DNA of 64,000 nucleotides from Oscillospiraceae bacterium (GTDB lineage: Bacteria > Bacillota > Clostridia > Oscillospirales > Oscillospiraceae). A model generated the notes under the pieces. The model saw nothing but the letters and a program-made list of their open reading frames with translations. It was not told the DNA's origin and searched no databases. Shown here piece by piece: positions 23,273 to 59,685 of this stretch. Made by a program: the position numbers and the translations under genes. Location: positions 22,692-86,691 of the forward strand of contig CACXJE010000004.1 of assembly GCA_902767915.1 (NCBI GenBank), read 5' to 3'. Each line of letters starts with the position of its first letter. The stretch's first letter is position 1.

Positions 23273-23292
23273 TTGCCTCTTCCTTTCCGCGG

Positions 23293-24468
23293 CTAATTGT
23301 GAAAGATCTTCTCGTAGCGCTTGTTGCCGAGGGCTCTGCGGGCAAACCAGCGCAGCCGCCGCTCCAGGGTGTACTCCCCCTGGTATTTGCCGGCCACCAC
23401 GTCGAAGGGCCTGCGGCGCAGTTCCTTCAGGAAGGCCTCCCGGTTCGGGTTGTGGGTCTCGGACGCCACCAGGGCGCCGTTTTCCTTGACGGCCGCGTCG
23501 AAGTCCAGGGGGTAGAGCCGGACGGAGGCGGAAATCTTCTCCAGAAAGGCGGCGGCCTTCCCGGAGTTGACGAGCAGGAGCGAAACGCCCTTGTCGTCGT
23601 TGATCCCGGGAAGCAGATTGTCCACGCCCCAGAGATCCGCAAGCGTAAAGTCCGCCAGGCGATACCTGTCCTTGAAATCGCAGGCGTAACAGCAGGGGCG
23701 GGAGCAGATGCCCCGCAGATAGGCGATGATATAGGGGTGCTTGAACTGGCTCAGCTCGTAGAAGGAGCCGTCCCGGAAGTCCATGCGCAGATGCCAGTTC
23801 TTCCAGCCGTGGGCCTTGTCGCGGAAGAAGACGCGCTCGGTCTTGGCCCGGGCCAGGCGCTCCCGGAGCTGAACGTATTTTCTCCAGGCCATTGGGGAGG
23901 GCACGCCGTGGCAGATCAGGTCCTGGGTGAGCAAATTCGGATAGTCCTTGCCCAGGAAGCCGAGCAGGCCCGAGGTCTGACAGGCCGTGCCGGAGAAATA
24001 GACCAGCCGCCCGGCGTCCAGACATTGCTTCGCCTGCACATAGCAGTCGCCGATCCGGCTCTGGACGTACTTGCTGCCCCGGAGCCGGTCCAGCTCCTTC
24101 TCCTCGGTGACGGCGATGTGCCGGACCTCGAAATTCTCGTCGAAGGCCGCGCCGAAGACCACGCCGCCCTGCCGCAGGACCGCGCTTGCCAGGGCTGAGA
24201 AGGCCCCGCCGGAGGAGCTTTTGCGCCGCACATCTTCGTCCCTGTGGATCAGGGCATAAGCGGCCACGTCCTCCCTGGTTCTCCGATTTTCCAGCGGGGA
24301 GAGGACGGGGCAGGCCTTCTCGCAGAGATTGCACTTGACGCAGGCCGCCGGGTCGATCCGCGGATACCAGAAGCCCTCTTTGTCTTCGACCATGCGGATG
24401 CACTGCTTGGGGCAGGCGCTGACGCAGGCGTAACAGCCCGTACAGCGCTGACCGATCTTGTCAATCAT
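23293..24468 (-). CDS. Coenzyme F420 hydrogenase/dehydrogenase beta-subunit-like FeS protein
   Basis: 391 aa with two ferredoxin-type motifs (CTGCYACVSACP, CVKCNLCEKACP). 4-nt overlap with the upstream pyruvyl transferase gene. Confidence 0.7.
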   Translation of the reverse strand: MIDKIGQRCTGCYACVSACPKQCIRMVEDKEGFWYPRIDPAACVKCNLCEKACPVLSPLENRRTREDVAAYALIHRDEDVRRKSSSGGAFSALASAVLRQGGVVFGAAFDENFEVRHIAVTEEKELDRLRGSKYVQSRIGDCYVQAKQCLDAGRLVYFSGTACQTSGLLGFLGKDYPNLLTQDLICHGVPSPMAWRKYVQLRERLARAKTERVFFRDKAHGWKNWHLRMDFRDGSFYELSQFKHPYIIAYLRGICSRPCCYACDFKDRYRLADFTLADLWGVDNLLPGINDDKGVSLLLVNSGKAAAFLEKISASVRLYPLDFDAAVKENGALVASETHNPNREAFLKELRRRPFDVVAGKYQGEYTLERRLRWFARRALGNKRYEKIFHN

Positions 24469-25658
24469 AGTTGGTCCTCCTGTATTGCCAATAAGCTGCG
24501 GGAGAGGTATTGCAGAGAAGCCTCCCGGAAGGCCGCGAGCTTCGCCGAAAGGGCGGCATGGTCCATCGCCTCCGGCCGGGGCGCGTCCGCCCGGTCCTCG
24601 CTGACAATCCGGTCCTCCAGGGAAAGCAGGCCGAAGAGGGATTCGATCCGCAGATTCTGGCTGTTGGGGTCGTCGGGACGGAAGCGCAGCAGATATTGAA
24701 AGTCCCGCTCAAAGAGCAGGGAGAAGATGGAGCCGTGGTAGGAGTCCGTCAGCACCCAGGCCGCGTCCCGGAACCGGGCGACGAATTCCCGGGGGCCGAT
24801 GACGCCGGTATCCACACAGCCCCGGCGCAGATGCTCCCAGCGGCTGGGCAGGAGCAGAAGCCGCAGCCCCAGCCGCTTCCCCAGGGCCTCCGCGTACCGG
24901 AAATACCAGGCCCGGTCCTCCAGAAAATAGCAGAGCAGATACTTCCCGCCGCGCTTTGGAACGGAGCGGCAGAAGTCCTCCCAGAAGGGCCGGTCGTGGA
25001 GGAGGGTGGGGTCCGCCACCCAGGAGACCTCCCGGCCCAGGAGCGCCGTCAGCTGCTCCGCGGAGCGGCTTTCCCGGACGGAGAGGGCGGAAAAGTCCTG
25101 CAAAAGTCCGGCAAGCTCCGCCGCCCGTTCATCGGAAATCCGCTCCGTGCCCAGGCTCGGGGCGTAGGCGAGCTTCGGTTTTTTCGCAAAGCTCAGGAAA
25201 TAATAGGGGTTGAAGTCGGCCGGGCGGAGGGACCAGATCTGATCGCTGCCGCAGAGAAAGGCGTCGTATTCCCCGTTCAGGACGGCGAGGCTGTCCGGCG
25301 AAAGCTCCCGGCGGACAGTCATATCCTGTTCAATAAAGGCGGCGATCGCCTTTTGGGATTCCTCGTAGGGGGCGGCGTAGCCCTCCCGGTCCAGCCGGGC
25401 CTTCAGGGCGCGCAGAAGCCTGCGGGGCTGCCGGAGCAGGCCGAGGCCCCGAGCCTCAGCTTCCACTTCGGCTGCGTCGTTCTCCACAGGCTTTGCCTTC
25501 TCATAGGGATGAAGCCTGCGGTGCTCTGCCAAGACCTCCCGGTCGGATAGGATCTCGTTTTCATACCCCAGCTGCCGGACCGCCTGCTGCAGGGCGCAGG
25601 CCTGGAGGACGGTGCCGTAGTTTTGGTAGGTGATCCAGGTGACTGTCGCGGTTTTCAT
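24465..25658 (-). CDS. Polysaccharide pyruvyl transferase family protein
   Basis: Start trimmed to ATG 25658 (MKTATVTWITYQNYGTVLQA) with AAGGAGAAG upstream. CGSDQIW motif. Confidence 0.7.
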   Translation of the reverse strand: MKTATVTWITYQNYGTVLQACALQQAVRQLGYENEILSDREVLAEHRRLHPYEKAKPVENDAAEVEAEARGLGLLRQPRRLLRALKARLDREGYAAPYEESQKAIAAFIEQDMTVRRELSPDSLAVLNGEYDAFLCGSDQIWSLRPADFNPYYFLSFAKKPKLAYAPSLGTERISDERAAELAGLLQDFSALSVRESRSAEQLTALLGREVSWVADPTLLHDRPFWEDFCRSVPKRGGKYLLCYFLEDRAWYFRYAEALGKRLGLRLLLLPSRWEHLRRGCVDTGVIGPREFVARFRDAAWVLTDSYHGSIFSLLFERDFQYLLRFRPDDPNSQNLRIESLFGLLSLEDRIVSEDRADAPRPEAMDHAALSAKLAAFREASLQYLSRSLLAIQEDQL

Positions 25659-25708
25659 AGGCTTCTCCTTATCGAATCGGAACGGCTTGTCCCTTGGCCG
25701 GCGGCGAA

Positions 25709-26596
25709 CTACCGGAGATGGAGCCGAAACTTGAGCAGCGTCTCCGAGAGCTTGACCCGGAACAGGACGGGATTCCTGTGCAGGATCTCCGCCATCTCCC
25801 GGACGCTCAGCCGATCCTTGCACAGCAGGTAGTAATCGCCGATCACGTCCCACTTGCCCGGCCCCTTGAGCTGGCCGTATTGGATCCGGTCGTAGATGTA
25901 CAGGCCCCAGCCCCGGGGATTTTTGCGGAAGCGCTCCTTGCTGCTGGCGGTCAGGCCGTCGGGCAGGTACTCGATTATCTTGATCGGCTGGTTGAAAAAC
26001 CGCATTTTCAGTCCGTCCGCCGCCATCTCGTAGAGGGCCGTCGCTTCGGTCAGGAAGTTTTCTCCCGGAAACTCCGCATAGGGGTACTTCCGCCAGACCT
26101 CCGTGTACAGAACCTCAGAACAGTCGCCGACAATCTCATTCCGGAGGCGTTCGATATAGGTCATATCCAGATAGCCGGGTCCCGCGAAGGAGCCCTTCAG
26201 GGGAAGCAGATCCGGGCCGCATTTTTGCCCGCAGACGCCCGCGAACCGGGGCTTTTCCTCCGGCGGGATGCTTTTTTCCACCCGATCGATGATCTCCAGG
26301 GCGTCATCGGTGAGATAATCATCGGAGTCCACACAGGTAAACAGCTCCCCCCGGGCCAGGCGGACGCCTAAGTTGTTGGCCCGGTGCTTTCCGCCGTTCT
26401 CCACCTTCTGATAGCGGATGGGGAAGCTCTGTTCTTCCTTCTGGAAGGCCGCGATCCGGGCCTCCGTATCGTCGGTAGAGCCGTCGTCTACGATAACCCA
26501 CTCAAAATCCCGGAAGCTCTGCCGCTGCAGGGAGCGGAACAGCTTCTCGATGCAATAGCCCCGGTTATAGGCCGGCGTAAAAACGGTAAATCGCAC
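25709..26596 (-). CDS. Glycosyltransferase family 2
   Basis: GTG start 26596 with GAGGAG 8 nt upstream. FTVFTPAYNRG...WVIVDDGSTDDT and DSDD motifs. Confidence 0.75.
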   Translation of the reverse strand: MRFTVFTPAYNRGYCIEKLFRSLQRQSFRDFEWVIVDDGSTDDTEARIAAFQKEEQSFPIRYQKVENGGKHRANNLGVRLARGELFTCVDSDDYLTDDALEIIDRVEKSIPPEEKPRFAGVCGQKCGPDLLPLKGSFAGPGYLDMTYIERLRNEIVGDCSEVLYTEVWRKYPYAEFPGENFLTEATALYEMAADGLKMRFFNQPIKIIEYLPDGLTASSKERFRKNPRGWGLYIYDRIQYGQLKGPGKWDVIGDYYLLCKDRLSVREMAEILHRNPVLFRVKLSETLLKFRLHLR

Positions 26597-30310: not shown

Positions 30311-32476
30311 CTACGGAAGCTCTGTCAGAGCGTCCAGATAATCCTCGCCGTCCGTGAGAAGATTATATTCCATATAGTAGTAATTTTGAATCAATTCATA
30401 GCGGGGATCGTTTTCATCGTATTGACTGATCGTCCCCGCCGCGTCGAGAACGGTTCCGTTGCTGGTCCGCACCGGGAAACGGTCATGGACCTCCAGGACG
30501 CCTTGATAGAAGGGGGTCTCTGGCATTCCCGCATAGGACAGCAGGAGGGGGAGCAGGTCGGTCATGGAGGTCTCAATGGATTCCTCCGGGAAGGAGACCG
30601 GATAGTTTGCCCAAATCACAAAGGGTACACATTTCTTCATCAGATCGTCCTCCTCGGCGCTTCTGGGGCAGGCCGAAGGCATTTGGCGGATGAAAGACGG
30701 AGCGTGGTCCCCCACCATGCAGATAACGACCGGACGCTCGCTGCGGGAAAAATAGTCCGTCATGTCCCGGAAGGCCTCCGCGGACAGGGCCACGGAGGAC
30801 AGATATTCGTTCACCTCTTCGGTCATATCTCCCAGGTCCTCCGTCACATGCACCGTATCCAGAGCGGGATCGTTGCTGTCATAGCCGCCGTGGTTCTGGA
30901 AGGTCAGCAGATAGTAGAAGCGATGCGCGCCGGGTTCCGCTTCATATTTCTCGATCAGTCCCTTGAAATCGTCCTCGTCCAGGATGTGTCGGTTTCCATA
31001 GTACCGCATCTCGGAGAAGCTGCCCTTTCCCATAATGACGTGATCAAAGCCCATGGCGGGAAAGGCGATATGGCGGGAATAGTTCGTCCCGTCGTTGCTG
31101 TGCAACGCCGTCGTCGTATAGCCCAGTTCCTTGAGATAGGTCGGCAGCGTCGCGTTCCGGGACGTGAAGCGGATGTAATTAAACGGCGCATAGATTGGCA
31201 GCAGATACATGGAGCAGGAGGTCAGAAGCTCAAACTCCGTGTTGTTGGTGCCGCCGCCCACATTGGGCGAATAGGCCTTGCCGTAGCAGGCATTTTCGAT
31301 CCCGTAGAACGGCGCCAGATAGTCCCGGTCAGTCTCGATTCCGCTGTAGTCGGACAGATCACAGAAGGATTCGTTCAAAATCAGGATGATATCCGGGAAC
31401 TGCTCTGCGGTCCCGGCCTTCCCCTCCGGGATCTCGATGCGGTCAGATGAATAGCCGGAGGGCCTGCGGATCGGATGAAGCACCTGCTCAATATTCGCCG
31501 CCGAGCAGCACAGATAGCCGTTTTCCTTGATTGCGGTGCGCCAGGAGAATTTCACGCTCTGATCCACGGCGATCGGGCTGTACAGGAACGTATAGAGGAA
31601 GGCCGCGTCGAGGACAAGCAGCAACGCGGTACGGAAGCTCCAACGCAGACGGCGCTTTGGCTCTTCCATCCGAAAGCGGCTGATCAGATACAGCTCCAGG
31701 AGCAGGAGCCCCAGGATCTCCGCGATCTCCGGTCCGAAGAACAGGGAATAGGCGCCGAGCACGCTCATAGCCGTCTTTGCGTTTGCGAATTCACTGGGGA
31801 AAAGCGGACTTCCGTGAAAGGCGATCACATAGTAGTTGACGATGGAAAGCAGGGCGACAAGACAGCAGCTCAGAACGGCCCCGCGCCTGCGGCTCTGGGA
31901 AAGCAAAGACAGCAGCAGCCACACAAGCAGAAGGATCCCAAGGTTCAGCAGCAGCGAGAATGGCCGGACGCGGACGCAGTCTCCCAGCATATCCAGACAG
32001 CTCCGCTGAAGCTGAAGAAGCTCCAGGAAGAACAACACGACCGGCAGTACGACGGTTATCGCTTTTGTACTGCGGGAGACACGCCCAAAGGTCCGCGAGC
32101 CCTCCAGGGCATTCAGACACACATTCAACCCATAGAAGGCCAACAATGCCAGGGCGAAGCCTGCCAGAATGAGAAAGGCGCTCGATGACAGCGAGATCTG
32201 CGAGGCAAGCCTTCTGACTAAGGAGGCGTTTTGCCAGCGATTATAAAATCGGCCGACGGCAAAGAGCAGAATCGCTGCGGTCGGCACCAGCTGCTGTTTG
32301 CCAAAGCGAAGTCTTCGCCCCGTGAGAAGCAGCGCCAGACAGAGAATGAGAAAACACCCGACGACCACGGCGATCCTGACCCAGTTCAAGGACACAAGCA
32401 GGGCGACAAGCGCGCCGAGGGAGCAGCAGGTCAGAATTGCAGTTTTCTTGCCGGAAGGCTGTGCTGTTGATTTCAT
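30311..32476 (-). CDS. LtaS-like / sulfatase-family phosphotransferase with large N-terminal membrane domain
   Basis: Start trimmed to ATG 32476. About 330 aa of TM segments, then an alkaline-phosphatase-superfamily domain (LILNESFCDLS...TNNTEFE...MVGDHAPS). Confidence 0.7.
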   Translation of the reverse strand: MKSTAQPSGKKTAILTCCSLGALVALLVSLNWVRIAVVVGCFLILCLALLLTGRRLRFGKQQLVPTAAILLFAVGRFYNRWQNASLVRRLASQISLSSSAFLILAGFALALLAFYGLNVCLNALEGSRTFGRVSRSTKAITVVLPVVLFFLELLQLQRSCLDMLGDCVRVRPFSLLLNLGILLLVWLLLSLLSQSRRRGAVLSCCLVALLSIVNYYVIAFHGSPLFPSEFANAKTAMSVLGAYSLFFGPEIAEILGLLLLELYLISRFRMEEPKRRLRWSFRTALLLVLDAAFLYTFLYSPIAVDQSVKFSWRTAIKENGYLCCSAANIEQVLHPIRRPSGYSSDRIEIPEGKAGTAEQFPDIILILNESFCDLSDYSGIETDRDYLAPFYGIENACYGKAYSPNVGGGTNNTEFELLTSCSMYLLPIYAPFNYIRFTSRNATLPTYLKELGYTTTALHSNDGTNYSRHIAFPAMGFDHVIMGKGSFSEMRYYGNRHILDEDDFKGLIEKYEAEPGAHRFYYLLTFQNHGGYDSNDPALDTVHVTEDLGDMTEEVNEYLSSVALSAEAFRDMTDYFSRSERPVVICMVGDHAPSFIRQMPSACPRSAEEDDLMKKCVPFVIWANYPVSFPEESIETSMTDLLPLLLSYAGMPETPFYQGVLEVHDRFPVRTSNGTVLDAAGTISQYDENDPRYELIQNYYYMEYNLLTDGEDYLDALTELP

Positions 32477-32501
32477 ATGCAGATCTCCGTTTATGATGTG
32501 A

Positions 32502-33119
32502 TCAGGCTTCGGAATGCTCCGAGGCCACCCGCTCCTCCACACGCACGGCGTCCGAGGCTGCAGGCGGCTCTTCCTCCGCTCCGGTGTGCTCCGGCTGCGG
32601 GAGTCTGGATTTTAGGAAATGCGCCGGGTTGCCGCCCCAGATCTCGTAGGGGGGCACGTCCTTGGTCACCACGGAGCCCGCGGCGATAATGGCCCCATTG
32701 CCGATGTGGACGCCCTTCATAATCAGAGACCGCGAGCCGATCCAAACGTCGTCTCCGATCACGATGGGCTCAATTTCCGTGCGGCCCTGGAGGCCCATGG
32801 GGATCGTAACATCGTCGTGCCGGTGCTCGTTGGTGAACATCAGCACGTCAATGCCGATCATGCCCTGCTTGCCGATGGTCACGCCGGAGGGGATCTGGCA
32901 GTTGGCCCCGATCCCAGCCCCGTGGCCCAGCTTCAAATCGTAGGCGAAGGTCACGTTCCGGTCGATGTTGACCCATTTGCCGCAGTCCTCCAGCATCAGA
33001 TGGGCACAGAACTGCCGGAAGCGCCGGGCCCCGAGGCTGACCCTGGCCCCGGAGAGGGGCAGCCGCTTGCCGATGAGGTGGTAGAGGAGCTTGCCGGTCA
33101 TTCGTTTGATTTTATTCAT
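32502..33119 (-). CDS. Hexapeptide-repeat (LbH) acetyltransferase
   Basis: Start trimmed to ATG 33119. IGDDVWIGSRSLIMKGVHIGNGAIIAAGSVVTKDVPPYEIWGGNPA. Confidence 0.75.
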   Translation of the reverse strand: MNKIKRMTGKLLYHLIGKRLPLSGARVSLGARRFRQFCAHLMLEDCGKWVNIDRNVTFAYDLKLGHGAGIGANCQIPSGVTIGKQGMIGIDVLMFTNEHRHDDVTIPMGLQGRTEIEPIVIGDDVWIGSRSLIMKGVHIGNGAIIAAGSVVTKDVPPYEIWGGNPAHFLKSRLPQPEHTGAEEEPPAASDAVRVEERVASEHSEA

Positions 33120-34139: not shown

Positions 34140-34844
34140 TCACTTGCAGCTTTTCCGAAGTACCTCGATGGCGCAAAGCAGGGGATCATAGATCCGCATT
34201 CCGTCGAAGGTCCTGGCAGGGACCCGGGAATAGAGCACCGGGAACTCCGTGCAGCCTAAGATCAGGGCGTCGCCGGAAAAGGACTTCACGAGCCCGATGA
34301 ACTTCCGGACGGTCTCCTCCGTGACGCAGTCCTGCTTGACGGCCTCGATGAGCTCCCGCTGCATGAGATACTGTTCGTTCTCCGGGCTGCGGACCGTGAT
34401 GCCATAGGGGGCAAGTCCCCAGGCGAAGACGCCGGATTGGATGGTGCCCTCCGAGGCGATCAGAGAGACCTCCTTTTCACCGGCGGCGGCGATCCTGTCG
34501 CAGCAGGCGTCGATGATGCTGACGATTTTCCCCTCCGCCTCCGGCAGGCTCCGGTAAATATCCGGCAGGAAGCAGTGGGAGGTGTTGCAGGCCAGGATGA
34601 TTTTGGTGGCCCCGGCCCGCAGCAGGGAGGAAACGGAATCGCAGAGCTCCGCGGTAAGGCGCTCGTATTCATAGCCCTCCAGCACGGCCCGGACCCGGCT
34701 TGGCATGGTGCAGCGGTTGTCGATGAGAATCCGCGGGCGGTCCCACTCCTTTTGGGCGGGGAAGGCCTTCAGCAGGGCCTCGAAAAAGTGCAGGGTGGCG
34801 TAGGAACCCATGCCCCCCAGCACGCCGATTACGTCTTGATACAT
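34140..34844 (-). CDS. Asp/Glu/hydantoin-racemase-family protein (aspartate-racemase-like)
   Basis: 234 aa. GVLGGMGSYAT plus two catalytic-Cys motifs, ILACNTSH and LGCTEFP. Confidence 0.7.
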   Translation of the reverse strand: MYQDVIGVLGGMGSYATLHFFEALLKAFPAQKEWDRPRILIDNRCTMPSRVRAVLEGYEYERLTAELCDSVSSLLRAGATKIILACNTSHCFLPDIYRSLPEAEGKIVSIIDACCDRIAAAGEKEVSLIASEGTIQSGVFAWGLAPYGITVRSPENEQYLMQRELIEAVKQDCVTEETVRKFIGLVKSFSGDALILGCTEFPVLYSRVPARTFDGMRIYDPLLCAIEVLRKSCK

Positions 34845-34847
34845 CCT

Positions 34848-35498
34848 TCAATCCTCATAGTTGTTGCGGACCCAGCGGACGGCCCGCTCATAGTCGTCGA
34901 TGGTGTCGATCTCCTTGGTGTGCAGGAAGATCATGGGCAGGGGCAGCATCGGCTCGATCAGGTGGAAGACGTGGCGCTTGCCGGGCCGCAGCTCTGCGGT
35001 TTTCAGCTTTGCAAGCCCCGTCCATTCGTAGTCGCCCTTCTCCTTGGAAAAGCCGGTCACGCACTCCACACCGTTGATGGTTTCCGTCGGCATGGTCCAG
35101 GGGTTGTCGGTGGAGGGGGTCGTGCCGCCCACGCAGCAGCCGTCATATTCCACGGCGCGGATCAGATCGTCGGGGCGGACCAGCAGGTCGCCGTCCAGGG
35201 CCACTGCGTACTCCCGGGCATGCTGGGCCCCCAGCCAGAAGCTGGCCCCCGTGCCGGTGTTGCGGTAGTCGTGGTTGAAGACATAGAGAATGTCCCGCCG
35301 GACGCTGTTGACCACCTCCATGACCTTCTCGGCCTGATAGCCGACCACGATGCGGATGTCGTCATAGTCCTTCAAAATTTCAAGCTGCCGCTCGATCAGG
35401 GTCTTGCCCTCGATCTCCACCAGGGCCTTGGTGCAGCCCAGGCCCAGGCGGGTCCCCATGCCGGCGCAGCTGATGACGATGCTGACGTTATTCTTCAT
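34848..35498 (-). CDS. Nucleotidyltransferase (NTP-transferase fold, cytidylyltransferase-like)
   Basis: 216 aa. VISCAGMGTRLGLGCTKALV (GxGxR-type signature). Confidence 0.65.
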   Translation of the reverse strand: MKNNVSIVISCAGMGTRLGLGCTKALVEIEGKTLIERQLEILKDYDDIRIVVGYQAEKVMEVVNSVRRDILYVFNHDYRNTGTGASFWLGAQHAREYAVALDGDLLVRPDDLIRAVEYDGCCVGGTTPSTDNPWTMPTETINGVECVTGFSKEKGDYEWTGLAKLKTAELRPGKRHVFHLIEPMLPLPMIFLHTKEIDTIDDYERAVRWVRNNYED

Positions 35499-36126
35499 CC
35501 TGTTTTTCCTCCTGTTCCTCCTCGTACAGCGTCCGAAGGAAGCGGCAGAGCCTGTCCTCGTCGTAGATCACGTGGGAGGCGTTGCTCATAAGGGCGTAGG
35601 CCACGGGCCGGACGCCGCCGAAGCCGATGCCGATCTCCGCCAGGCGGACCATCTCCGCGTCGTTGCTCCCGTCGCCCACGGCTACCACCGGCCGGACGAA
35701 TTGCTCCACAATCCGGCCCTTGTCCACCACGCTGTTGACCCGGATCAGCCTGTCATCCTGGGCGCTGGCCGTGGAGCAGAGGCAGTGGGACATGGGCAGC
35801 CCGATCTTTTTCATCAGCTTCGCAATCCAGATATCCAGATTGCCTGTGACGATATAGCAATCCTCCACATGCTCCCGAATGAATTGGACAATTCCCTCGT
35901 GCAGAGGCACCTTGGAAACGATCTCCGCCACCTTGCTGACCGGGATCGGGCGCAGCATCTCCACCCTTGCCAGGAAGCTGCTCTTGAAGGGCAGCTCGCC
36001 CCGCATGGTCCGTTCTGTCAGCTCGCTGATCTCCCGGGTGAGTCCCACCTGTTCCGAAAGCGCAGGCAGAATCTCCTCCTTGGTGACCGTCGCGTCCAGA
36101 TCAAAGAGAAATACTCTGTGGTTCAT
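35488..36126 (-). CDS. HAD-IB-type phosphatase (phosphoserine-phosphatase-like)
   Basis: Start trimmed to ATG 36126 (MNHRVFLFDLDATVTKEE). Motif I DLDAT, motif III VGDGSNDAEM. The upstream part of the track ORF is a shadow of the LicD gene. Confidence 0.7.
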   Translation of the reverse strand: MNHRVFLFDLDATVTKEEILPALSEQVGLTREISELTERTMRGELPFKSSFLARVEMLRPIPVSKVAEIVSKVPLHEGIVQFIREHVEDCYIVTGNLDIWIAKLMKKIGLPMSHCLCSTASAQDDRLIRVNSVVDKGRIVEQFVRPVVAVGDGSNDAEMVRLAEIGIGFGGVRPVAYALMSNASHVIYDEDRLCRFLRTLYEEEQEEKQDEE

Positions 36127-36140
36127 GGTTTCTTTCCTCG

Positions 36141-37142
36141 TTATTCTATGATTCCCTGCTTGCGCAGCCAGGCAAAGCCCTCCTCCAGGCCCTCGTCGAA
36201 CTCCGTGGTGTGGGGCTCGCTCAGGGACCGGGGCAGGCACCAATAGTCTCCGTAGGAGGAGCGCAGCGCCCAGTCGTAATTCTGCCAGACGTCGTATCTG
36301 CGGCCCTCGAACTCCACCTCGTCCTTCAGCAGGGGGAAGAACTTTTCCACCGGACGGATTCCGCGCTCGTCGCGGCTCCACCAGGGGCAGTTGATGGGCT
36401 CGCAGAAATAATCTCCACGCCCAAAGTAAGGGAACCGCTTTTCCTGCTCCGCCTCGAATTCGGCGGTCAGCCGGTCCAGCTCGTGGTTTTCCACCGGGCG
36501 GCAATAATACTTGCCCTGCTCCTGCGCGGAGAGCTCCCGGATCTTCCGGATGTGCTCCTGATTGAGCGCCTGGGTTCTTTTCCACATCTCGTCCAGATTC
36601 TCCGGCGTCACGTCGATGCAGTCAAAGACCAGAATGTCGATCCAGAAGACGTCCACGGCCCGGAACTTGACCTTGGAGATTTTCAGGCCCTCTTTGTAGT
36701 TGTAGCAGTACTCCACCCGCAGGGTCTCGTCGTGGGCAAGCAGCTCCCGGAGCTTCAGGTAGTCCTGCCGCATCATGCCGATGTCCACATCGTTGTCCCA
36801 GGGGATGAAGCCGTGGTGCCGGACGGCGCCCATCAGGGTCCCGCCCACCAGGAACAGGGACAGGCCGTTGGCGTCGCAGACGTCCTTGACCCGCTCCAGG
36901 ATGTATTTCTCCGCCAGCTGGATGTTCCGCAGGCGGCCCGTGGCCTTGGGCATTTGCAGGCAGAGGCGCTGTCTCGTCTGTTGCATCGTCTCGCCGGGCT
37001 TCATCTGGGAGAGGAAAAACAGGTACTCCTGCTTCTTGTCCATCTCCCGGATTTCCTTGCGCAGGGTCTCCATGGCCTCGTTCATTCTGCGCTCCGTTCG
37101 GTAGGAGGGCAGGACCTTTTTCAGCTTTTCTCTGATGCTCAT
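36141..37142 (-). CDS. LicD-family phosphotransferase
   Basis: 333 aa. LFLVGGTLMGAVRHHGFIPWDNDVDIGM core motif. Confidence 0.75.
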   Translation of the reverse strand: MSIREKLKKVLPSYRTERRMNEAMETLRKEIREMDKKQEYLFFLSQMKPGETMQQTRQRLCLQMPKATGRLRNIQLAEKYILERVKDVCDANGLSLFLVGGTLMGAVRHHGFIPWDNDVDIGMMRQDYLKLRELLAHDETLRVEYCYNYKEGLKISKVKFRAVDVFWIDILVFDCIDVTPENLDEMWKRTQALNQEHIRKIRELSAQEQGKYYCRPVENHELDRLTAEFEAEQEKRFPYFGRGDYFCEPINCPWWSRDERGIRPVEKFFPLLKDEVEFEGRRYDVWQNYDWALRSSYGDYWCLPRSLSEPHTTEFDEGLEEGFAWLRKQGIIE

Positions 37143-37172: not shown

Positions 37173-38162
37173 TCAGTTTCCGGCTGTGCGCTTCGGGTAA
37201 TGCTTTCCGGCCAGGAAAGGCAGCCAGCGGTTGATGATATAGATGATCGGCGGCTCCAGGACGACCACCACCGCCAGCATGATCAGGCCCGCCCAGAGCG
37301 GCGTCGTACCGAAGTCGGAAATGCCCAGCAAGACCGCCACAGCCGCGTAAATGATGTGGTGCGTGCCGAAAATGATGATGGAATTCCTTCCGGCTCCGCT
37401 TAGAATCCGGTTGAAGGGCTCCGGCGGCTGAGGCTGTGAAATCTGAAGCACGAAGTAAGTGCCAAGAACGCCGTAGCAGATTTGGATGAGATATTTCAGC
37501 GGCTGGAACGGAATCCGCAGATCGGCGAATTTGGGGCCGAAGAACAGTCCCGCCGCCAGCACCGCCGCTCCGGAGAGGCAAATCAGCCAGATACGCCGCT
37601 GCTCCAGGAGCTCCCGTCCGTAGAAGCCGACGACGAAATAGGGCAGGTATTTCATGGAGGAGGCCAGGGTGGACAAAACAGGGATTCCCCCCAGCGGAAG
37701 GAAGGACGAAAAAAGCAGGGCGGCAGCGGCGGCGCACACGGCCCATTTTTTCCGCAGCAGAAGAGCCAGGGCCGCAAAGATCAGCTCCACCAGGAAGAGC
37801 GAAACGATGAACCAGAGGTTATGGTCGTTATAGCGCAGACTCAAGGTGTTGAAGAGATAGCCCTTCCAGTTCAGGGTGACGCCGTTTCGGATAATATCCG
37901 TCAGCACCCCCAGCAGTTCAATAAACACAAAGGGAATGCCAAAGGCATAGAGTCGCCGCAGGAAGAAGCTTCCGAAGCCCTTTCGGTAGGATCTCGTAAT
38001 CCCCAGCAGCAGGCCGCTGATGACGAAGAAGGCGGGCATGTGGAAGACGTAGATCGTATTGAAGACCGGACCCGACTGCCAGATGTGGCCGATCACCACA
38101 AGAATGATCAGGATGCCCTTGGCCCGGTCGATATAGTCCAGTCTGTTTTTTCGTTCACTCAT
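37173..38162 (-). CDS. Acyltransferase family 3
   Basis: 329 aa. RLDYIDRAKGILIILVVIGH; about 10 TM segments. Confidence 0.7.
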   Translation of the reverse strand: MSERKNRLDYIDRAKGILIILVVIGHIWQSGPVFNTIYVFHMPAFFVISGLLLGITRSYRKGFGSFFLRRLYAFGIPFVFIELLGVLTDIIRNGVTLNWKGYLFNTLSLRYNDHNLWFIVSLFLVELIFAALALLLRKKWAVCAAAAALLFSSFLPLGGIPVLSTLASSMKYLPYFVVGFYGRELLEQRRIWLICLSGAAVLAAGLFFGPKFADLRIPFQPLKYLIQICYGVLGTYFVLQISQPQPPEPFNRILSGAGRNSIIIFGTHHIIYAAVAVLLGISDFGTTPLWAGLIMLAVVVVLEPPIIYIINRWLPFLAGKHYPKRTAGN

Positions 38163-38191: not shown

Positions 38192-39193
38192 TTATTTTTC
38201 AAAGCTGCTCTTCTCCGGCAGGATGGTCTCGAAGGCCGCCTTCAGCTCGGCGGCGAGGGCCTCGAAGGGGATGTCCCCGGAGGGGTCGTTGATGCACACC
38301 ATGTCGTGCTCCTGACCGCGGATCAGGCCGCAGAGCCGGTCCACGGTATCGGGGTTGCAGTCCTCCACCACGTTGTCGGTCATGAAGGGGCTGAATTTCC
38401 CCGCGGCCACCTGCCACCAGAGGGCCAGCCACTGGTTCACGTCCTCGTTGCTCCGGAAGCGCCTGGCGGTGGTTGCCTCCAGCAGCTCCGGCTCCTCCGC
38501 CCAGATCGTCTCCAGGGTCGATTTCAGGAAGGCTGCGGGGGCGTGGAGGTTCTTGAAGCCCAGGAAGTTCTCCGGGTAGAGCCGCTCCAGCAGCCTGGTA
38601 CGGAGATTGTCCTTCCAGGGGTAGGCCCGGTTTGCGTATTTTTTCCCGTTTTTTCGGACCTGCTCCGGCTTATGGAAGTGGTTGTTGATGACCCGCAGGT
38701 CGTTGGCGATCAGATGCTGCCAGATCCCCGGGACGCCCCGGAAGGCGGCGGGGACCTCCCCGCCGAAGGTGCAGGGCAGGCCGTCCCGGAAGAAATTCGT
38801 CTCCGGCTGGGGCCGCAGCAGGAACATGTCGTCGTTGAAGAATACATAGTGATCGGCCAGGCCGGGGATCCGATGGACGTTCATCTCAATGGTGTTGGCG
38901 CTGAAGGTGGGCAGACAGGCCGCCGGAATGTAGTCGCTGTGGCGGACGTGGTGCAGCTTGGGGGCGTCCAGGTTCAGGAAGTCCGGCACGTGGCCGCAGG
39001 TGACGAAATGGACGGTCCGCACCCAGGGGGCGAAACGTTCGATCCCCCGGAACCAGTAGGGCATGAGGCCCCAGTCCCGGAAGCGGTTGACGGAATTGGC
39101 GTCGGTCAGGGTCTTGCCCTGGTACTTCGCCTTCTGGGCCTGCCAGGCGGGATCGCTGCCGTCCACCCAGAGAACTACAATATCAATGTCCAT
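38192..39193 (-). CDS. Stealth-family (CR1-CR4) sugar-1-phosphate transferase
   Basis: 333 aa. IDIVVLWVDGSDPAW (CR1), RFRDWGLMPYWFRGIERFAPWVRTVHFVT (CR2), FFNDDMFL (CR3). Confidence 0.75.
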   Translation of the reverse strand: MDIDIVVLWVDGSDPAWQAQKAKYQGKTLTDANSVNRFRDWGLMPYWFRGIERFAPWVRTVHFVTCGHVPDFLNLDAPKLHHVRHSDYIPAACLPTFSANTIEMNVHRIPGLADHYVFFNDDMFLLRPQPETNFFRDGLPCTFGGEVPAAFRGVPGIWQHLIANDLRVINNHFHKPEQVRKNGKKYANRAYPWKDNLRTRLLERLYPENFLGFKNLHAPAAFLKSTLETIWAEEPELLEATTARRFRSNEDVNQWLALWWQVAAGKFSPFMTDNVVEDCNPDTVDRLCGLIRGQEHDMVCINDPSGDIPFEALAAELKAAFETILPEKSSFEK

Positions 39194-39203: not shown

Positions 39204-40097
39204 TTATCCTTTCAAGCGGCGGATCAGCCGCCGGGGCAGCTTCCAGAGGTCGAAGTCCCTGAGGCGCAGATCGACGGCCTCGAACCGGGAGGAGCGGCAG
39301 TAGGTGTGGGCGCCGTCCACCCGGAATCCGGCCAGTTTTCCCATCGGCGTTTGCAGGAGTCCCGCGGGCTCCTCGGCGTGGGACCGCTCCGTATCCCGCA
39401 GGCGGACGAGCTCCACGGCGTCGCCGTAGCGCTGCTCCTGATTCCGCTGGACGGGCCGGTACAGGACGCCATTCTCGGCGAAGACCGGTCCCGCGCCCCG
39501 GACCCGGAGCCCGTCGTACTCTTTCCAGTCCAGCGGCTCCAGAGCGGCTTCGGCGACGCTCAAGCGCAGGCTGTAGGCCCTGGGCGTCACCCGCTCGGTC
39601 TTCCCGTCCGTCAAAAAGCTCAGCAACCGGAGACCGCCGTCCCATTCATAGACCGTGGTGTCCACGGCCCGTTCCCGGAGCAGGACCTCCCGGAGCTTCC
39701 ATCGGTAGGGAAAGGCCTCCGCCTGGTACAGCCGGAGCTCCCTCGCCGCCGAGGACTCGGGAATCATGTACCAGATGCCCTGCCAGCGGAAGAGAAAGGG
39801 ATAGGAGTAGTGGCATTCGTCCCGCAGGATCACCCGGGGCTCCCCCAGGGAGCAGTCCGGCAGAACTTCCGCGGCCTCGATGTGGCCGTGGTCGTTTTCC
39901 ACGGCCTCATAAAACAGCCAGGTTCTTCCGTCCTCCTCCGCCAGCATGGGGTCCGCTGCCCAGCGGGCGGCCTCGGCGGGCAGGACGAAGGCCGGGGAAA
40001 AGCCCGCTTCCTCCAGGACGCTCTTCACCGCTCTGGGGCGGAGCGCCACCGTAAAATAGCTGTGGGTCAGAAACAGCTTTTGCAGCAATGGATTCAT
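39204..40097 (-). CDS. Conserved hypothetical, beta-propeller-like (resembles the GINT1 N-terminal/GH43-like family seen in glycan loci)
   Basis: Start trimmed to ATG 40097 (MNPLLQKLF). WAADPML...HYSYPFLFRWQGIWYMIPES pattern; family name recalled from memory only. Confidence 0.45.
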   Translation of the reverse strand: MNPLLQKLFLTHSYFTVALRPRAVKSVLEEAGFSPAFVLPAEAARWAADPMLAEEDGRTWLFYEAVENDHGHIEAAEVLPDCSLGEPRVILRDECHYSYPFLFRWQGIWYMIPESSAARELRLYQAEAFPYRWKLREVLLRERAVDTTVYEWDGGLRLLSFLTDGKTERVTPRAYSLRLSVAEAALEPLDWKEYDGLRVRGAGPVFAENGVLYRPVQRNQEQRYGDAVELVRLRDTERSHAEEPAGLLQTPMGKLAGFRVDGAHTYCRSSRFEAVDLRLRDFDLWKLPRRLIRRLKG

Positions 40098-40099
40098 AT

Positions 40100-41146
40100 T
40101 CAGCCTCGTTTCAGCAAGGGCTTGACCGCCCGGACGGCTCTGGCCCGGGCGCTCCGGTAACGGACCCGGGTCCAGATGGGCAGGGCCTTTCCGGCGACGA
40201 GCTGCCCGCAGAGCCGCCGGCTCCCCTCGGAGAGCCGGGGAAGCGCCTCCGCGCATTCCCGGAAATTCCGGTTTGCCGCGAATTCCGCGCAGTGCTTCCG
40301 GACCTCCCCAAGGGGGGCGGTCTGCATCTTGACCCAAAACAGATCCAGATAGATTTGGAGCACGATTGCCTTCAGGGCCTCCCGGTCCTCGCCGGCGAAG
40401 CCGCAGCAATCGGCCAGCTCAAAAAAGCGTTTGGCGACCAGGTCCGTATTGGCGGCCACGGCGTCGATTTTGGCGATCCGGTCCACGGTCCGGTCGTGGT
40501 CGTAGTCGGTATTGTATTGATAGCAGATCTCCGGAAGCACCAGACAGCGGGCGCTGTGGGCCATAGCCTCCAGAGAAAAAGCCAAATCTTCGTAGTTGGT
40601 GAGCCCCCGGTCGAAGCGGACGCCGCTTTCGAGCAGCAGGCTGCGGCGAAACAGCTTGTTCCACACCGGGGAGAGGTAATTCGTACGGAAGAGCTCCGCG
40701 AACCGCGGGCCCAGGGCGCTCCGCTCCAGCAGCAGCCGCTGCCCGAAGCGGAGGGCCTCGGTCTTCATCAGCTGCTCGCCCCGGAAATAGCGAAACTCCA
40801 TGCCGAAGAGGACCACGCCCGGCTGGGAGCGCTCCAGCTCCTCCAGGGCCGCCGCGGGCAGGGGCAGGGCCCCGTCGTCGGCGTCCACGAACCAGAGATA
40901 GTCGCCCCTTGCCTCCTCGATTCCCAGATTCCGAGCCGAGGAGACGCCGCCGTTGGGCTTGTGGACACAACGGACCGCGGGATATTCTCCCGCCAGGGCG
41001 TCGCAGAGCGCCGCCGTGCCGTCGGTGGAGCCATCGTCGATCAGCAGGAGCTCCGCCAGGGGGAGTCCGATGCCGAGGACCCGGGTGACCGTCTCCCGGA
41101 GGGTGGCCCCGCACTGATAGGCCGGAATGATAACGCTGACAGTCAT
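40100..41146 (-). CDS. Glycosyltransferase family 2
   Basis: VSVIIPAYQCGATL...LLLIDDGSTDGT and DADD motifs. Confidence 0.75.
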   Translation of the reverse strand: MTVSVIIPAYQCGATLRETVTRVLGIGLPLAELLLIDDGSTDGTAALCDALAGEYPAVRCVHKPNGGVSSARNLGIEEARGDYLWFVDADDGALPLPAAALEELERSQPGVVLFGMEFRYFRGEQLMKTEALRFGQRLLLERSALGPRFAELFRTNYLSPVWNKLFRRSLLLESGVRFDRGLTNYEDLAFSLEAMAHSARCLVLPEICYQYNTDYDHDRTVDRIAKIDAVAANTDLVAKRFFELADCCGFAGEDREALKAIVLQIYLDLFWVKMQTAPLGEVRKHCAEFAANRNFRECAEALPRLSEGSRRLCGQLVAGKALPIWTRVRYRSARARAVRAVKPLLKRG

Positions 41147-46441: not shown

Positions 46442-47431
46442 TTAATGAAGCAACCGTCCCGCAATCAAATCGATCATCCAAGTCTGTCGGAGCCGGACGG
46501 GAAGAGTGATCGCTCTGCAATATTTTGTCTTCGGGTAGCGCATATGCTTCCGATTGATCTCACCGCAGGCCTTCCAGAGGGCCCTTTGCCGTTTGGCCCA
46601 GGAAAGGCCCTCCCGGCGCAGGTCCTTGGCGTCCTTGTAGATCCCCCGGCAGACGCCGAAGTTGTAGGCTCGGCGGTACAGCTTCTTCTCCGACTCCGGG
46701 AGCACCGCCCCGGCGATGGCCTGCCGGACGAATTCCCCCGTGATCTCGAACTGAGCGGAGAGGTCCGCGTGCTGTTTCCGGGAGAGGGAGTCCTCGTTCT
46801 CCGTATTCACGTAGTAAACGATCTGATCGGAGGTCAAATAGCTGTTTACAAACATGGAATATCGGATGTTCAGAGCCCGGTCCTCGGCCACGGAGGCCCC
46901 CAGGGGGAAGCGGATTCCTTCCCGCTCCAGAATGTCCCGGCGGTAGATCTTGGCGCAGGGGGAATTAATCGTTTTATTACAGATTTCGTCTATGATCCGT
47001 GGAAAGAGCTCCTTCCGGGTCCGGAAGGCGTGAAGCGTCGGCGGCTGAGCTGGGGATTCTTTCCCTTCCGGGCAGATAGAAAATCGAATCCAGTCCCAGT
47101 CCGATTCCGCCAGCAAAGCGGAGGCCGCGGAGAGCAGATCACCGGAAACCCAGTCGTCGCTGTCCATGAAGAGCACATAGTCTCCCCGGGCCGCGTCCAG
47201 CCCCGCGTTTCTCGCGGAGGAGACGCCGCCGTTTTTCTGATCGATGAAATGAACCCGGGCATCCCGCCCGGCGTATTCGGCGCAGATCGCGCCGCTTCCG
47301 TCTCTGGAACCGTCGTTTATCAGGATCAGTTCATCTTGATCCCGGAGCTGGGGCAGCAGACTGTCCACGCAGCGGCATAGGGTCTTTTCCGCATTATAGA
47401 CAGGAATGATAACAGAATAACACGGGCTCAT
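46442..47431 (-). CDS. Glycosyltransferase family 2
   Basis: YSVIIPVYNAEKTL...LILINDGSRDGS and DSDD motifs. Confidence 0.75.
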   Translation of the reverse strand: MSPCYSVIIPVYNAEKTLCRCVDSLLPQLRDQDELILINDGSRDGSGAICAEYAGRDARVHFIDQKNGGVSSARNAGLDAARGDYVLFMDSDDWVSGDLLSAASALLAESDWDWIRFSICPEGKESPAQPPTLHAFRTRKELFPRIIDEICNKTINSPCAKIYRRDILEREGIRFPLGASVAEDRALNIRYSMFVNSYLTSDQIVYYVNTENEDSLSRKQHADLSAQFEITGEFVRQAIAGAVLPESEKKLYRRAYNFGVCRGIYKDAKDLRREGLSWAKRQRALWKACGEINRKHMRYPKTKYCRAITLPVRLRQTWMIDLIAGRLLH

Positions 47432-48345
47432 GATGGTCCCTTTCCAAAGTTCCTCAAATCAGCATCGTCTTCTTGCTGTTTGATGGTTTCCCAATCCCGC
47501 TCCAGATCAATATACATATTCCCGTGGTTGCTGCATCGCTTTTCCTCGGGTGGAAGCTGCATATAGTCCCCATAATTATTTCGAAGAACCGCGTCGTAAT
47601 CCTCTGGCGCGGCACAAGCCAAGCCTTCAAAGAGAAGGCTGACAGGCTGCTTCTGATATTGTTCGGCTGGAACAACAGCGGTAATAGATCCCCATACCTC
47701 GGCCAAGTTGTCTTTCCCTGTCTGAGAAAAGAGTCTTCGGCGGATCCATTTCGCAAAGCGCTTTCGGTTTTTACCCAACAGTCTTCGCAGCGCCGTAGCT
47801 AGCGCCGTCTTTCCTCTGCCGCTGGTCTTCTTCATCCAGTCCCGATTCTTGGCAAAGGCCTCCGCAGACATGCAGAGCACATTCGTAATAGGAATCAAGG
47901 TTTTTTTCAGCTTTACATCCATTTTTCCGCCCACAGAGATCAGAGGAAAGATGTCAATCCAGACGCCATGATGGCCGCCCTCGCACTCCCAATCACGAAT
48001 CATCGTAGAGTTGTTCCTTCGGACCCGAGCAAACCCAAACTGAAAACTTTCATCCGTATCCGACGTCTGCAAAAAGTACTTTTCGCCCAAAGCCTTTTGC
48101 CCCAGCTCCAGAAAGCGCTGGAAGTCCCGATAGGTCATAGAAATGTCTATATCGTCATCCCATGGGATGAAACCTTTATGGCGGACTGCACCCAGAAGTG
48201 TGCCGCCGGATAAAAAATATTGCAGCTTGTTATCCTCGCAGACACGCTTCACGTCGCGAAGCATATCCAGCTCAAAAAGCTGAAGATCTCTCAAATTTGG
48301 CCGTGCCATAATCTCGCTCCTTTGTAATGGTTCCGCCGCACTCAC
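47428..48345 (-). CDS. LicD-family phosphotransferase
   Basis: YFLSGGTLLGAVRHKGFIPWDDDIDISM. Alternative start ATG 48309. More AT-rich than neighbours. Confidence 0.75.
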   Translation of the reverse strand: MSAAEPLQRSEIMARPNLRDLQLFELDMLRDVKRVCEDNKLQYFLSGGTLLGAVRHKGFIPWDDDIDISMTYRDFQRFLELGQKALGEKYFLQTSDTDESFQFGFARVRRNNSTMIRDWECEGGHHGVWIDIFPLISVGGKMDVKLKKTLIPITNVLCMSAEAFAKNRDWMKKTSGRGKTALATALRRLLGKNRKRFAKWIRRRLFSQTGKDNLAEVWGSITAVVPAEQYQKQPVSLLFEGLACAAPEDYDAVLRNNYGDYMQLPPEEKRCSNHGNMYIDLERDWETIKQQEDDADLRNFGKGPS

Positions 48346-52333: not shown

Positions 52334-52342
52334 TCCGCTCCA

Positions 52343-53914: not shown

Positions 53915-53979
53915 AGTAACAAGGCAATTTGCAGCACCTCCTATTGCAGGCTATAAAACCCCATCAATAGCCAACCTAT

Positions 53980-54008
53980 ATTATACATTGATGTAATTAA
54001 AAAGGCAA
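53980..54008 (-). promoter_or_regulatory. Candidate sigma-70-type promoter of the glycopolymer locus
   Basis: Minus strand reads TTGCCT - 17 nt - TATAAT (-35 at 54003-54008, -10 at 53980-53985), about 60 nt upstream of the first gene. Confidence 0.5.
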
Positions 54009-54498: not shown

Positions 54499-54528
54499 TT
54501 TCTGAGCCGTACGGAGCTTGCTCCGACG

Positions 54529-56045: not shown

Positions 56046-56055
56046 AGGAATCATT

Positions 56056-59682: not shown

Positions 59683-59685
59683 GCA

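Follow-up and report, generated by a model that had tools for sequence, protein, structure and literature searches.

What kind of surface group is made by a glycan locus that codes, side by side, for a LicD-family transferase, a phosphatase-like enzyme, a nucleotidyltransferase and an amino-acid racemase? The question is raised by a 64,000-nucleotide stretch of DNA from an Oscillospiraceae bacterium (assembly GCA_902767915.1, contig CACXJE010000004.1, positions 22,692 to 86,691), referred to below as the window and numbered from its first letter. Four co-directional genes on its minus strand, at 34140-37142 and in the order LicD-HAD-NTP-RAC, form the module in question: LicD (36141-37142, 333 residues; PF04991), a HAD-family protein (HAD; 35488-36126, 212 residues; PF12710/TIGR01488), a nucleotidyltransferase of the LicC/IspD fold (NTP; 34848-35498, 216 residues; PF12804) and a member of the Asp/Glu-racemase family (RAC; 34140-34844, 234 residues; PF01177/TIGR00035). 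Comparison of genes and sequences leads us to favour, with somewhat better than even confidence, the view that the module is a cassette for a cytidine diphosphate (CDP)-linked amino-acid head group, of the type of the Fta pathway of C. difficile, acting on a cell-wall polysaccharide that is built in the cytoplasm and exported by the Wzm/Wzt transporter of the same locus.

The flagellin Type A pathway of C. difficile comprises FtaABCD, encoded by CD0241-CD0244 (PMC10714395; bioRxiv 10.64898/2026.02.12.704994; bioRxiv 10.1101/2024.09.23.614423). FtaA (CD0241) is a HAD protein resembling phosphoserine phosphatase (PSP) and ThrH and has been modelled on ThrH and on the PSP of M. jannaschii (MjPSP) (PMC10714395; bioRxiv 10.64898/2026.02.12.704994). 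FtaB (CD0242, UniProt Q18CY2) is a nucleotidyltransferase, and CDP-threonine, like CDP-N-methylthreonine, depends in vivo on both ftaA and ftaB. FtaC methylates CDP-threonine, and the TagF-like FtaD moves phospho-(N-methyl)threonine onto O-linked GlcNAc. An FtaA-FtaB dimer is predicted in the same literature, and PA1088-PA1091 of P. aeruginosa are analogous to FtaABCD. CDP-threonine was first shown as a cellular metabolite in a 2026 preprint, for flagellin glycans only; the same preprint places fta-like genes in larger glycosyltransferase clusters of some Clostridia, so that an extension to polysaccharides is already anticipated (bioRxiv 10.64898/2026.02.12.704994). The two Fta papers are silent on racemases, epimerases and LicD, and our literature search returned no papers in which LicD, a racemase, a phosphoserine phosphatase and a nucleotidyltransferase occur together. 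A preprint on the 'teichoic-acid-like' qim system of S. pyogenes was considered as a match and set aside, as it mentions no racemase, LicD or cytidylyltransferase.

The four genes and their predicted products

The genes are closely packed: a 14-nt gap separates LicD and HAD, HAD and NTP overlap by 11 nt and NTP and RAC lie 3 nt apart. A purine-rich ribosome-binding site (RBS) precedes every start, and the same four products come from a separate gene call on an identical metagenome contig. The mechanically delimited HAD open reading frame (ORF) is longer, and the ATG at 36126 (MNHRVFLFDLD) is preceded by the RBS AGGAAAG. A promoter and terminator scan found no terminator-like site at the junctions of the module and, as a whole, gave no signal above shuffled expectation worth reading. 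Tight packing and the four family assignments had been put forward in an earlier, sequence-only reading of this DNA; the ORF coordinates bear out the former, and matches to Pfam, TIGRFAM and the PDB the latter.

HAD scores above the cutoff for TIGR01488 (HAD-IB) and also matches PF12710. Its best equivalog model is SerB (E 2e-28, below cutoff), ThrH models match as well, and its best match in the PDB is MjPSP (1F5S; E 3e-18). The DxDxT nucleophile motif is kept, and MjPSP residues Asp11, Asp13, Glu20, Met43, Phe49 and Arg56 correspond to D9, D11, E18, M41, F47 and R54 of HAD, all of them conserved; the last four are equivalent to those by which MjPSP holds phosphoserine at its amino-acid moiety. 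With the HAD of a flagellar gene cluster from Rheinheimera it shares 39% identity (E 3e-57). Membership of HAD-IB, the DxD nucleophile motif and the phosphoserine-binding residues are the features by which we class HAD as FtaA-type, and it is predicted to phosphorylate an amino-acid hydroxyl in a phosphoserine-dependent manner.

NTP matches PF12804 (NTP_transf_3; E 6e-12); its best PDB match, pneumococcal LicC (1jyk), is weak (E 5e-7) and confined to the N-terminal half. Identity to the NTP of the Rheinheimera flagellar cluster (locus L162) is 33% (E 5e-37). The family is small, an exhaustive search of 1.84 billion representatives having returned 318 representative clusters at E<=1e-10. As it adjoins an FtaA-like HAD and is homologous to the NTPs of fta-like clusters in flagellin islands, NTP is classed as FtaB-type, a predicted CTP:phospho-amino-acid cytidylyltransferase.

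RAC matches PF01177 (E 4e-24) and lies above the cutoff of the amino-acid racemase model TIGR00035. It does not reach the equivalog cutoff for cysteate, aspartate/glutamate or glutamate racemase, the best equivalog being the cysteate racemase CuyB (141 versus 190 bits). The best solved relative is the aspartate racemase of P. horikoshii (1JFL; E 1e-25), whose Cys82, Cys194, Arg48 and Lys164 correspond to C86, C198, R50 and K170 of RAC; all four are invariant in an alignment of 12 diverse RAC homologues. The cysteines sit in the motifs LACNTSH (Cys86) and GCTEFP (Cys198), and the earlier observation that both catalytic cysteine motifs are present therefore holds. In aspartate racemase the equivalents of Arg50 and Lys170 bind the acidic groups of the substrate. 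RAC also carries two subfamily signatures, IDNRCTMPSRV, which is invariant, and KEWDRPR, and is 49% identical (E 1e-61) to a RAC from Selenomonadaceae. We predict that it epimerizes the alpha-carbon of an amino-acid head group.

LicD matches PF04991 over residues 89-298 (E 3e-24) and contains the D-x-D-bearing LicD motif GAVRHHGFIPWDNDVD; the transferase beside HAD is thus a LicD protein and not a TagF-like one such as FtaD. Two further LicD paralogues lie in the window, at 47428-48345 and 48342-49199, which makes three in all. Since the window has its own choline route in addition to these two LicDs, the LicD of the module probably uses a donor other than CDP-choline, and we predict that it transfers a phospho-amino acid from a CDP donor to the glycan.

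Co-conservation, gene fusions and fta-like clusters

Gene neighbourhoods were compared in two sets, one anchored on RAC (80 species-level genome loci, with a phmmer census of six-frame ORFs) and one anchored on NTP (80 metagenome loci, dereplicated to 19 clusters). The nearest genomic relatives are uncultured Oscillospiraceae with a RAC that is 83% identical. HAD and NTP adjoin RAC in 23 of the 80 RAC loci, in the order of the window in 20 and as RAC-HAD-NTP in one; carriers of HAD-NTP-RAC include Streptococcus ovis DSM 16829, Ruminococcus flavefaciens Y1, Lachnospiraceae, metagenome-assembled Bacilli and a Saccharibacteria genome. LicD stands directly upstream of HAD-NTP in 11 RAC loci, and a TagF-like transferase takes that place in five. 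The full LicD-HAD-NTP-RAC order is found in loci L001-L007 (Oscillospiraceae, Ruminococcaceae), with an orthologue of the module's LicD directly upstream of HAD, and in L035, L059, L064 and L073, where the LicD before HAD is more divergent and has the window LicD at 47428-48345 as its best match. A TagF-like gene is in the transferase position in L017, L020, L032, L050, L074 and L143. More broadly, a nucleotidyltransferase lies within 3 kb on the same strand in 63 of the 80 RAC loci, and LicD or TagF within 8 kb in 43. The 3-nt and overlapping junctions of the module genes recur across phyla.

In the NTP-anchored set, HAD is adjacent in 17 of the 19 clusters and RAC in 10 of the 19, so that HAD-NTP is a near-obligate core and RAC a frequent add-on. 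A natural variant without HAD is seen in L088 (1295-3777; NTP 77% identical), where LicD abuts NTP-RAC. The 150 best representatives of the NTP family were also surveyed for gene fusions and 21 multidomain members were examined; they include six HAD-NTP, three NTP-RAC, one HAD-NTP-RAC, seven NTP-methyltransferase and three HAD-NTP-methyltransferase fusions. HAD-NTP-RAC is a single chain in L078, and NTP-RAC in L074. The C-terminal slot after NTP is filled either by RAC or by an S-adenosylmethionine methyltransferase (MT). We considered whether MT and RAC exclude each other and rejected this, as MT lies directly upstream of RAC in loci of the L143 type and in L069. Found again in other families and phyla, and also in fused form, the four-gene arrangement is far beyond chance. 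Conservation of the gene neighbourhood, the check proposed with the sequence-only reading, came out positive, both LicD-HAD-NTP-RAC and HAD-NTP-RAC being found in other genomes.

A profile search with a distant branch of the NTP family retrieved members from Rheinheimera, Lysinibacillus and Selenomonadaceae. In Rheinheimera soli (L162, 5735-8654) and in a Lysinibacillus sp. (L163, 5721-8654) the genes are arranged as LicD-MT-HAD-NTP directly beside flagellin, FliD/FliS and Maf genes; judged by their gene content, these clusters are an fta-like pathway with LicD in place of the TagF-like FtaD. The Selenomonadaceae contig carries TagF-like, RAC, HAD and NTP genes. L143 (3122-14951), a human-gut locus with ten copies, carries a TagF-like gene and MT-RAC-HAD-NTP and, to all appearances, has a complete fta gene set with a racemase inserted between MT and HAD. 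Given the 39% and 33% identities to the flagellar cluster, the fusions of HAD, NTP and MT and the gene context, we place HAD and NTP in the FtaA/FtaB family.

Some of these clusters have further genes. The Rheinheimera set adjoins a phosphoenolpyruvate (PEP)-mutase phosphonate cassette. L143 holds a second TagF-like gene and an aminoethylphosphonate cassette (class V aminotransferase, LicC-like NTP, phosphonopyruvate decarboxylase and a CTP_transf_like-PEP mutase fusion), which together with the fta-like set points to two CDP/CMP-activated head groups in one locus. The commonest gut relative, L092 (7357-10487; NTP 63% identical), is of a type found in another 48 near-identical human-gut metagenome loci (e.g. 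L096 and L132); in it HAD-NTP is followed by a 605-residue fusion of a second NTP to a CobD-like domain with pyridoxal phosphate (PLP) enzyme character, whose best model is the threonine-phosphate decarboxylase TIGR01140 (E 1e-49, below cutoff). L092 has no racemase, LicD or glycan genes and may be a route to CDP-aminopropanol or to an ethanolamine-type head group. The presence of a threonine-phosphate decarboxylase-like neighbour in relatives of the module is an independent hint at phosphothreonine as the substrate.

A candidate pathway and its rivals

Gene structure, family membership, the catalytic and ligand-binding residues, the conserved neighbourhood with its fusions and the homology to fta-like clusters of flagellar islands are shown by the analysis; from these we infer a pathway, including its amino acid, its phosphoryl donor, its nucleotide, the step taken by RAC and its acceptor. 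HAD would phosphorylate an amino acid, in all likelihood threonine, on its side-chain hydroxyl with phosphoserine as the donor, as suggested by the retained phosphoserine site, the hypothesis held for FtaA and the CobD-like neighbour. NTP would join the phospho-amino acid and CTP to give a CDP-amino acid, in keeping with its family membership and with the genetic evidence on FtaB. RAC, with its two-cysteine machinery intact, would invert the alpha-carbon; the conserved Arg and Lys, the likeness to cysteate racemase and the appearance of RAC in the place of FtaC in fusions suggest that its substrate is probably the CDP-linked or the phosphorylated form. LicD would then attach the phospho-(D-)amino acid at a hydroxyl of a sugar with release of CMP, at the cytoplasmic face and before ABC export, a role consistent with its adjacency to the other genes here and in the flagellar clusters. 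The outcome would be a zwitterionic, phosphodiester-linked amino-acid substituent.

Comparative evidence thus favours the sequence-only proposal of an amino-acid-derived group that would be phosphorylated, CMP-activated, epimerized and moved as a phosphodiester, with a D-configuration. The accompanying claim that the module follows no known route has to be given up for HAD and NTP, which family and context assign to FtaA/FtaB, but stands for RAC and for LicD in its polysaccharide setting. A racemase, a LicD partner and a polysaccharide setting being undescribed so far, we regard the module as a variant of a very recently defined pathway.

A number of points weigh against an Fta-type assignment. 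All four activities are predictions drawn from gene and sequence comparison, and for FtaA itself a phosphoserine:threonine phosphotransferase activity has been put forward in print only as a hypothesis. The link to Fta comes from family, context and fusions, not from an alignment to CD0241/CD0242 or PA1089/PA1090; neither C. difficile nor P. aeruginosa is among the matches listed for the profile search with the distant NTP branch. None of the papers searched reports a phospho-amino-acid substituent on a Gram-positive wall polysaccharide. The LicD of the module and that of the flagellar cluster are alike around the catalytic motif only (E 1e-9). HAD-NTP pairs without RAC are common, and RAC homologues also occur without HAD or NTP. 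Across the 80 RAC loci there are other partners: a small TagD-like cytidylyltransferase beside RAC in 50, an ATP-grasp ligase alongside it in 14 (in 12 of these within 3 kb on the same strand) and a metallophosphoesterase fused to it in four. The role of RAC may therefore be more general, for example the supply of a free D-amino acid. The triple fusion L078, finally, is without the first catalytic cysteine.

The sequence of that fusion (8741-10681) has LDSSTPY instead of LACNTSH at the first cysteine motif and keeps GCTELP at the second; its RAC domain may be a one-base enzyme like arylmalonate decarboxylase, or degenerate.

How else might the four genes be read? One scheme, which we hold to be unlikely, has RAC racemize O-phospho-L-serine, NTP convert the product to CDP-D-serine and LicD transfer it, with HAD left as a pool-tuning or proofreading phosphatase. 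It would explain why HAD keeps every phosphoserine-binding residue of MjPSP and why cysteate racemase is the best equivalog of RAC, cysteate being near phosphoserine in shape and Arg50 and Lys170 being kept; the many loci with LicD-RAC and a cytidylyltransferase without HAD would fit a substrate that needs no dedicated phosphorylation, and the close relative L088 has no HAD. The near-obligate pairing of HAD with NTP, often in a single chain, is nevertheless hard to understand if HAD only degrades the substrate, ftaA is required for the formation of CDP-threonine in C. difficile and the CobD-like neighbour indicates phosphothreonine. Distinctly improbable, in our judgement, is a division of labour in which HAD, NTP and LicD install an L-amino-acid phosphate just as Fta does, and RAC separately provides a free D-amino acid, such as D-Asp or D-Glu, that goes into peptidoglycan or into a glycan substituent with an amide link. 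RAC aligns best to aspartate racemases, with their conserved Arg and Lys, an ATP-grasp enzyme resembling D-Ala-D-Ala ligase is paired with it in 14 loci, and a gene for a Na+:dicarboxylate/amino-acid symporter stands before the RAC fusion of L046. In Enterococcus faecium, moreover, an aspartate racemase and an ATP-grasp D-Asp ligase are coded in one operon. Yet NTP-RAC and HAD-NTP-RAC occur as single chains in several lineages, the 3-nt and overlapping junctions recur across phyla, RAC is placed between MT and HAD in the complete fta-like set and no ATP-grasp ligase is found in the window.

The two remaining readings take RAC out of the pathway altogether. In a polyol-phosphate route of the CDP-2-glycerol or CDP-glycerol type, HAD would act on glycerol or glycerol phosphate, NTP would make a CDP-polyol, LicD would serve as WchX does and RAC would work elsewhere. 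The order of the pneumococcal genes wchX-gtp1-gtp2-gtp3, a LicD-family gene followed by three genes of which one codes for a nucleotidyltransferase, looked collinear with the module; a direct mapping was rejected because gtp1 is annotated as a dehydrogenase, which the module does not have, and gtp3 as a phosphotransferase, and the route is kept as a very improbable rival. (Gtp1 is reported to be a reductase in a 2010 J Bacteriol abstract by Wang et al., and Gtp3 is reportedly the glycerol phosphotransferase of the pneumococcal CDP-2-glycerol pathway.) The fusion of a SerB-like domain to glycerol-3-phosphate dehydrogenase in PDB entry 6iuy and the TagD-like gene that usually adjoins RAC in other loci lend the polyol route some support. 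Against it, HAD retains the Glu and the Arg with which an amino acid is bound at its amino and carboxyl groups, and members of the NTP family occur in fusions with FtaC-like methyltransferases and next to a CobD-like decarboxylase; the 120 best relatives listed for the S. ovis RAC include no pneumococcal protein. A two-cysteine racemase also needs an acidic alpha-carbon, and polyols have none. We give next to no credence to an ordinary phosphocholine or phosphoethanolamine system, with NTP as a LicC paralogue and with HAD and RAC as housekeeping serine and aspartate enzymes that merely lie nearby. LicC is indeed the best PDB match of NTP and three LicD genes are present in the locus; that match is, however, the weak, N-terminal one described above, a dedicated LicC-choline-kinase fusion and a BCCT transporter lie elsewhere in the window, the module is without a kinase, and the conservation and fusions of HAD-NTP-RAC speak against chance adjacency. 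The fusions, the conservation of junctions across phyla and the amino-acid-binding residues disfavour the free-D-amino-acid, polyol and phosphocholine readings alike.

Under the preferred reading of an Fta-type cassette, the module suggests that CDP-threonine chemistry also decorates the wall polysaccharides of widespread gut and rumen bacteria. It suggests too an extra tailoring step, inversion of the alpha-carbon to give a D-amino-acid phosphodiester, of which the papers searched hold no instance. A tentative extension, which we regard as possible rather than probable, is that RAC is the first cofactor-independent racemase to act on a nucleotide-activated or O-phosphorylated amino acid and that the cassette installs a phosphodiester-linked D-amino acid on wall polysaccharides. 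If so, RAC would turn CDP-L-threonine or phospho-L-threonine to the D-allo form, or would do the same to the serine equivalent, and a zwitterionic, protease- and phosphodiesterase-resistant surface tag, so far unknown, would be spread over Oscillospiraceae, Lachnospiraceae, Ruminococcus, some streptococci, Selenomonadaceae and Saccharibacteria of gut and rumen; surface decoration would then draw on CDP-amino acids quite generally, and these would be more than a flagellar curiosity. There is a moderately high chance of a new surface substituent, namely a phosphodiester-linked D-amino acid, and of a new racemase specificity. Zwitterionic substituents, phosphocholine, D-alanyl esters and aminoethylphosphonate among them, determine how autolysins bind, how phages adsorb, how cationic peptides are resisted and how the host immune system recognizes the cell; a new one carried by abundant commensals would bear directly on the biology of host and microbe and of phage and host. 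Streptococcus ovis DSM 16829 and Ruminococcus flavefaciens Y1 are cultured carriers available for experiments, and the natural HAD-NTP(-RAC) single chains might circumvent the reported insolubility of FtaB.

The wider locus and known systems

The module lies inside a minus-strand glycan locus of ~30 kb, which codes for a Wzm/Wzt ABC exporter, many glycosyltransferases of families GT2 and GT4, EpsG, a Stealth hexose-phosphate transferase, a lipoteichoic acid (LTA)-synthase-like protein with a sulfatase domain, acyltransferases and a pyruvyl transferase. No flagellar genes were found in the glycan locus, and no FtaC-like methyltransferase is detectable anywhere in the window. The LTA-synthase-like protein (30311-32542) is polytopic and has 743 residues; the Stealth-family hexose-1-phosphate transferase lies at 38192-39193, and a further protein (39204-40409) matches GINT1 (glucosamine inositolphosphorylceramide transferase) over the N-terminal domain of the latter. 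The polymer of the locus probably carries several phosphodiester-linked groups. Immediately upstream of LicD, and on the same minus strand, is a membrane acyltransferase of the Acyl_transf_3 family (37173-38162; PF01757, E 9e-28). Members of this family flank the module in its Oscillospiraceae relatives and in L020 and L042, and lie within 3 kb of RAC in only six of the 80 loci; the gene is a possible accessory whose membership of the module is uncertain.

A BCCT betaine/choline transporter (658 residues) and a helix-turn-helix-LicC-choline-kinase fusion (591 residues), on the minus strand at 9172-13233, constitute a complete CDP-choline route ~21 kb from the module and presumably serve the tandem LicDs at 47428-48345 and 48342-49199. 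The module itself holds neither a choline kinase nor a choline transporter, and the sequence-only reading was right in excluding the choline route, which is coded separately. Its view that the module makes neither CDP-glycerol nor CDP-ribitol agrees with the absence of a TagD-like (HxGH) ORF from the 64-kb window, where no search was aimed at TarI or TarJ.

Elsewhere in the window, an FrhB/FdhB-like iron-sulfur protein adjoins a polysaccharide pyruvyl transferase at 23293-25853, which by sequence implies a pyruvylated glycan; an alternative frame at 22481-24403 codes for a DXD sugar-binding glycosyltransferase domain and overlaps the FrhB-like ORF, so that the gene calls are uncertain here. 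Just beyond the glycan locus (52000-64000) the G+C content, about 0.58-0.62 until then, drops to 0.39-0.47, and this low-G+C part codes for a phage-type integrase at 54658-55989; the two features together suggest the boundary of a mobile element or prophage beside the glycan locus.

RAC homologues in other genomes have surroundings of their own. The TagD-like gene (L008-L080; e.g. L020 10674-11096) codes for ~140 residues with HxGH, usually follows RAC with overlapping codons and is fused to it in L066 (9947-11086); the enzyme is distinct from true TagD. It is missing from the closest relatives of the window as from the window itself, and its inclusion in the module was rejected for want of such an ORF. 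The metallophosphoesterase-RAC fusions (L046 2219-4150, L065 6494-8335, L068 3199-5070 and L070 213-2069) have a calcineurin-like domain of ~370 residues and are followed by the TagD-like gene; in L046 the symporter-family gene before the fusion is of the sodium:dicarboxylate (Glu/Asp or Ser/Thr) type. A cassette of Lachnospiraceae (e.g. L026 6225-12335) consists of a methyltransferase, an MFS transporter, a 425-residue protein with no match in Pfam or NCBIfam, RAC, the TagD-like enzyme and an ATP-grasp ligase. It is present in L026-L034, L038, L048, L053, L055 and L066, has no LicD or TagF and gives the impression of a pathway to a small molecule or peptide in which a racemase of this family is employed.

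Among known racemases, the aspartate racemase of P. horikoshii (1JFL), McyF and CuyB have the fold and both catalytic cysteines in common with RAC, and the P. horikoshii enzyme also its Arg and Lys; RAC differs in its subfamily signature and in its location in glycan loci, where it adjoins or is fused to nucleotidyltransferases. The LicA/LicC/LicD system of S. pneumoniae and H. influenzae follows the same logic as the window, a LicC-fold cytidylyltransferase feeding LicD to give a phosphodiester-linked head group, whereas the module has no choline kinase or transporter, is predicted to rely on a HAD phosphotransferase for phosphorylation and includes a racemase. In the Gtp1/Gtp2/Gtp3-WchX system of S. 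pneumoniae, as in the window, a LicD-family gene is followed by three head-group genes including a cytidylyltransferase; it differs in the annotation of gtp1 and gtp3 given above, in its head group, which is achiral glycerol-2-phosphate, and in having no racemase. CDP-L-glutamine, an intermediate in the synthesis of O-methyl phosphoramidate in C. jejuni, is likewise a nucleotide-activated amino acid used in the decoration of a surface glycan, as proposed here; it is cited in the 2026 preprint (bioRxiv 10.64898/2026.02.12.704994). Its linkage is of another kind, a phosphoramidate made via the amide nitrogen, its amino acid is removed by hydrolysis instead of being transferred, and the enzymes are unrelated to those of the module. 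The Fta pathway shares with the window a PSP/ThrH-like HAD adjoining a LicC-like nucleotidyltransferase and a CDP-alcohol-type phosphotransferase, and the predicted logic is the same, with a CDP-amino acid moved as a phosphodiester to a sugar and a tailoring enzyme for the head group. Where Fta has the methyltransferase FtaC, the window has a racemase, and other loci have both; where Fta has a TagF-like transferase, the window has one of the LicD family; and the acceptor, which in Fta is O-GlcNAc or rhamnose on flagellin, is presumably an ABC-transporter-dependent wall polysaccharide in the window.

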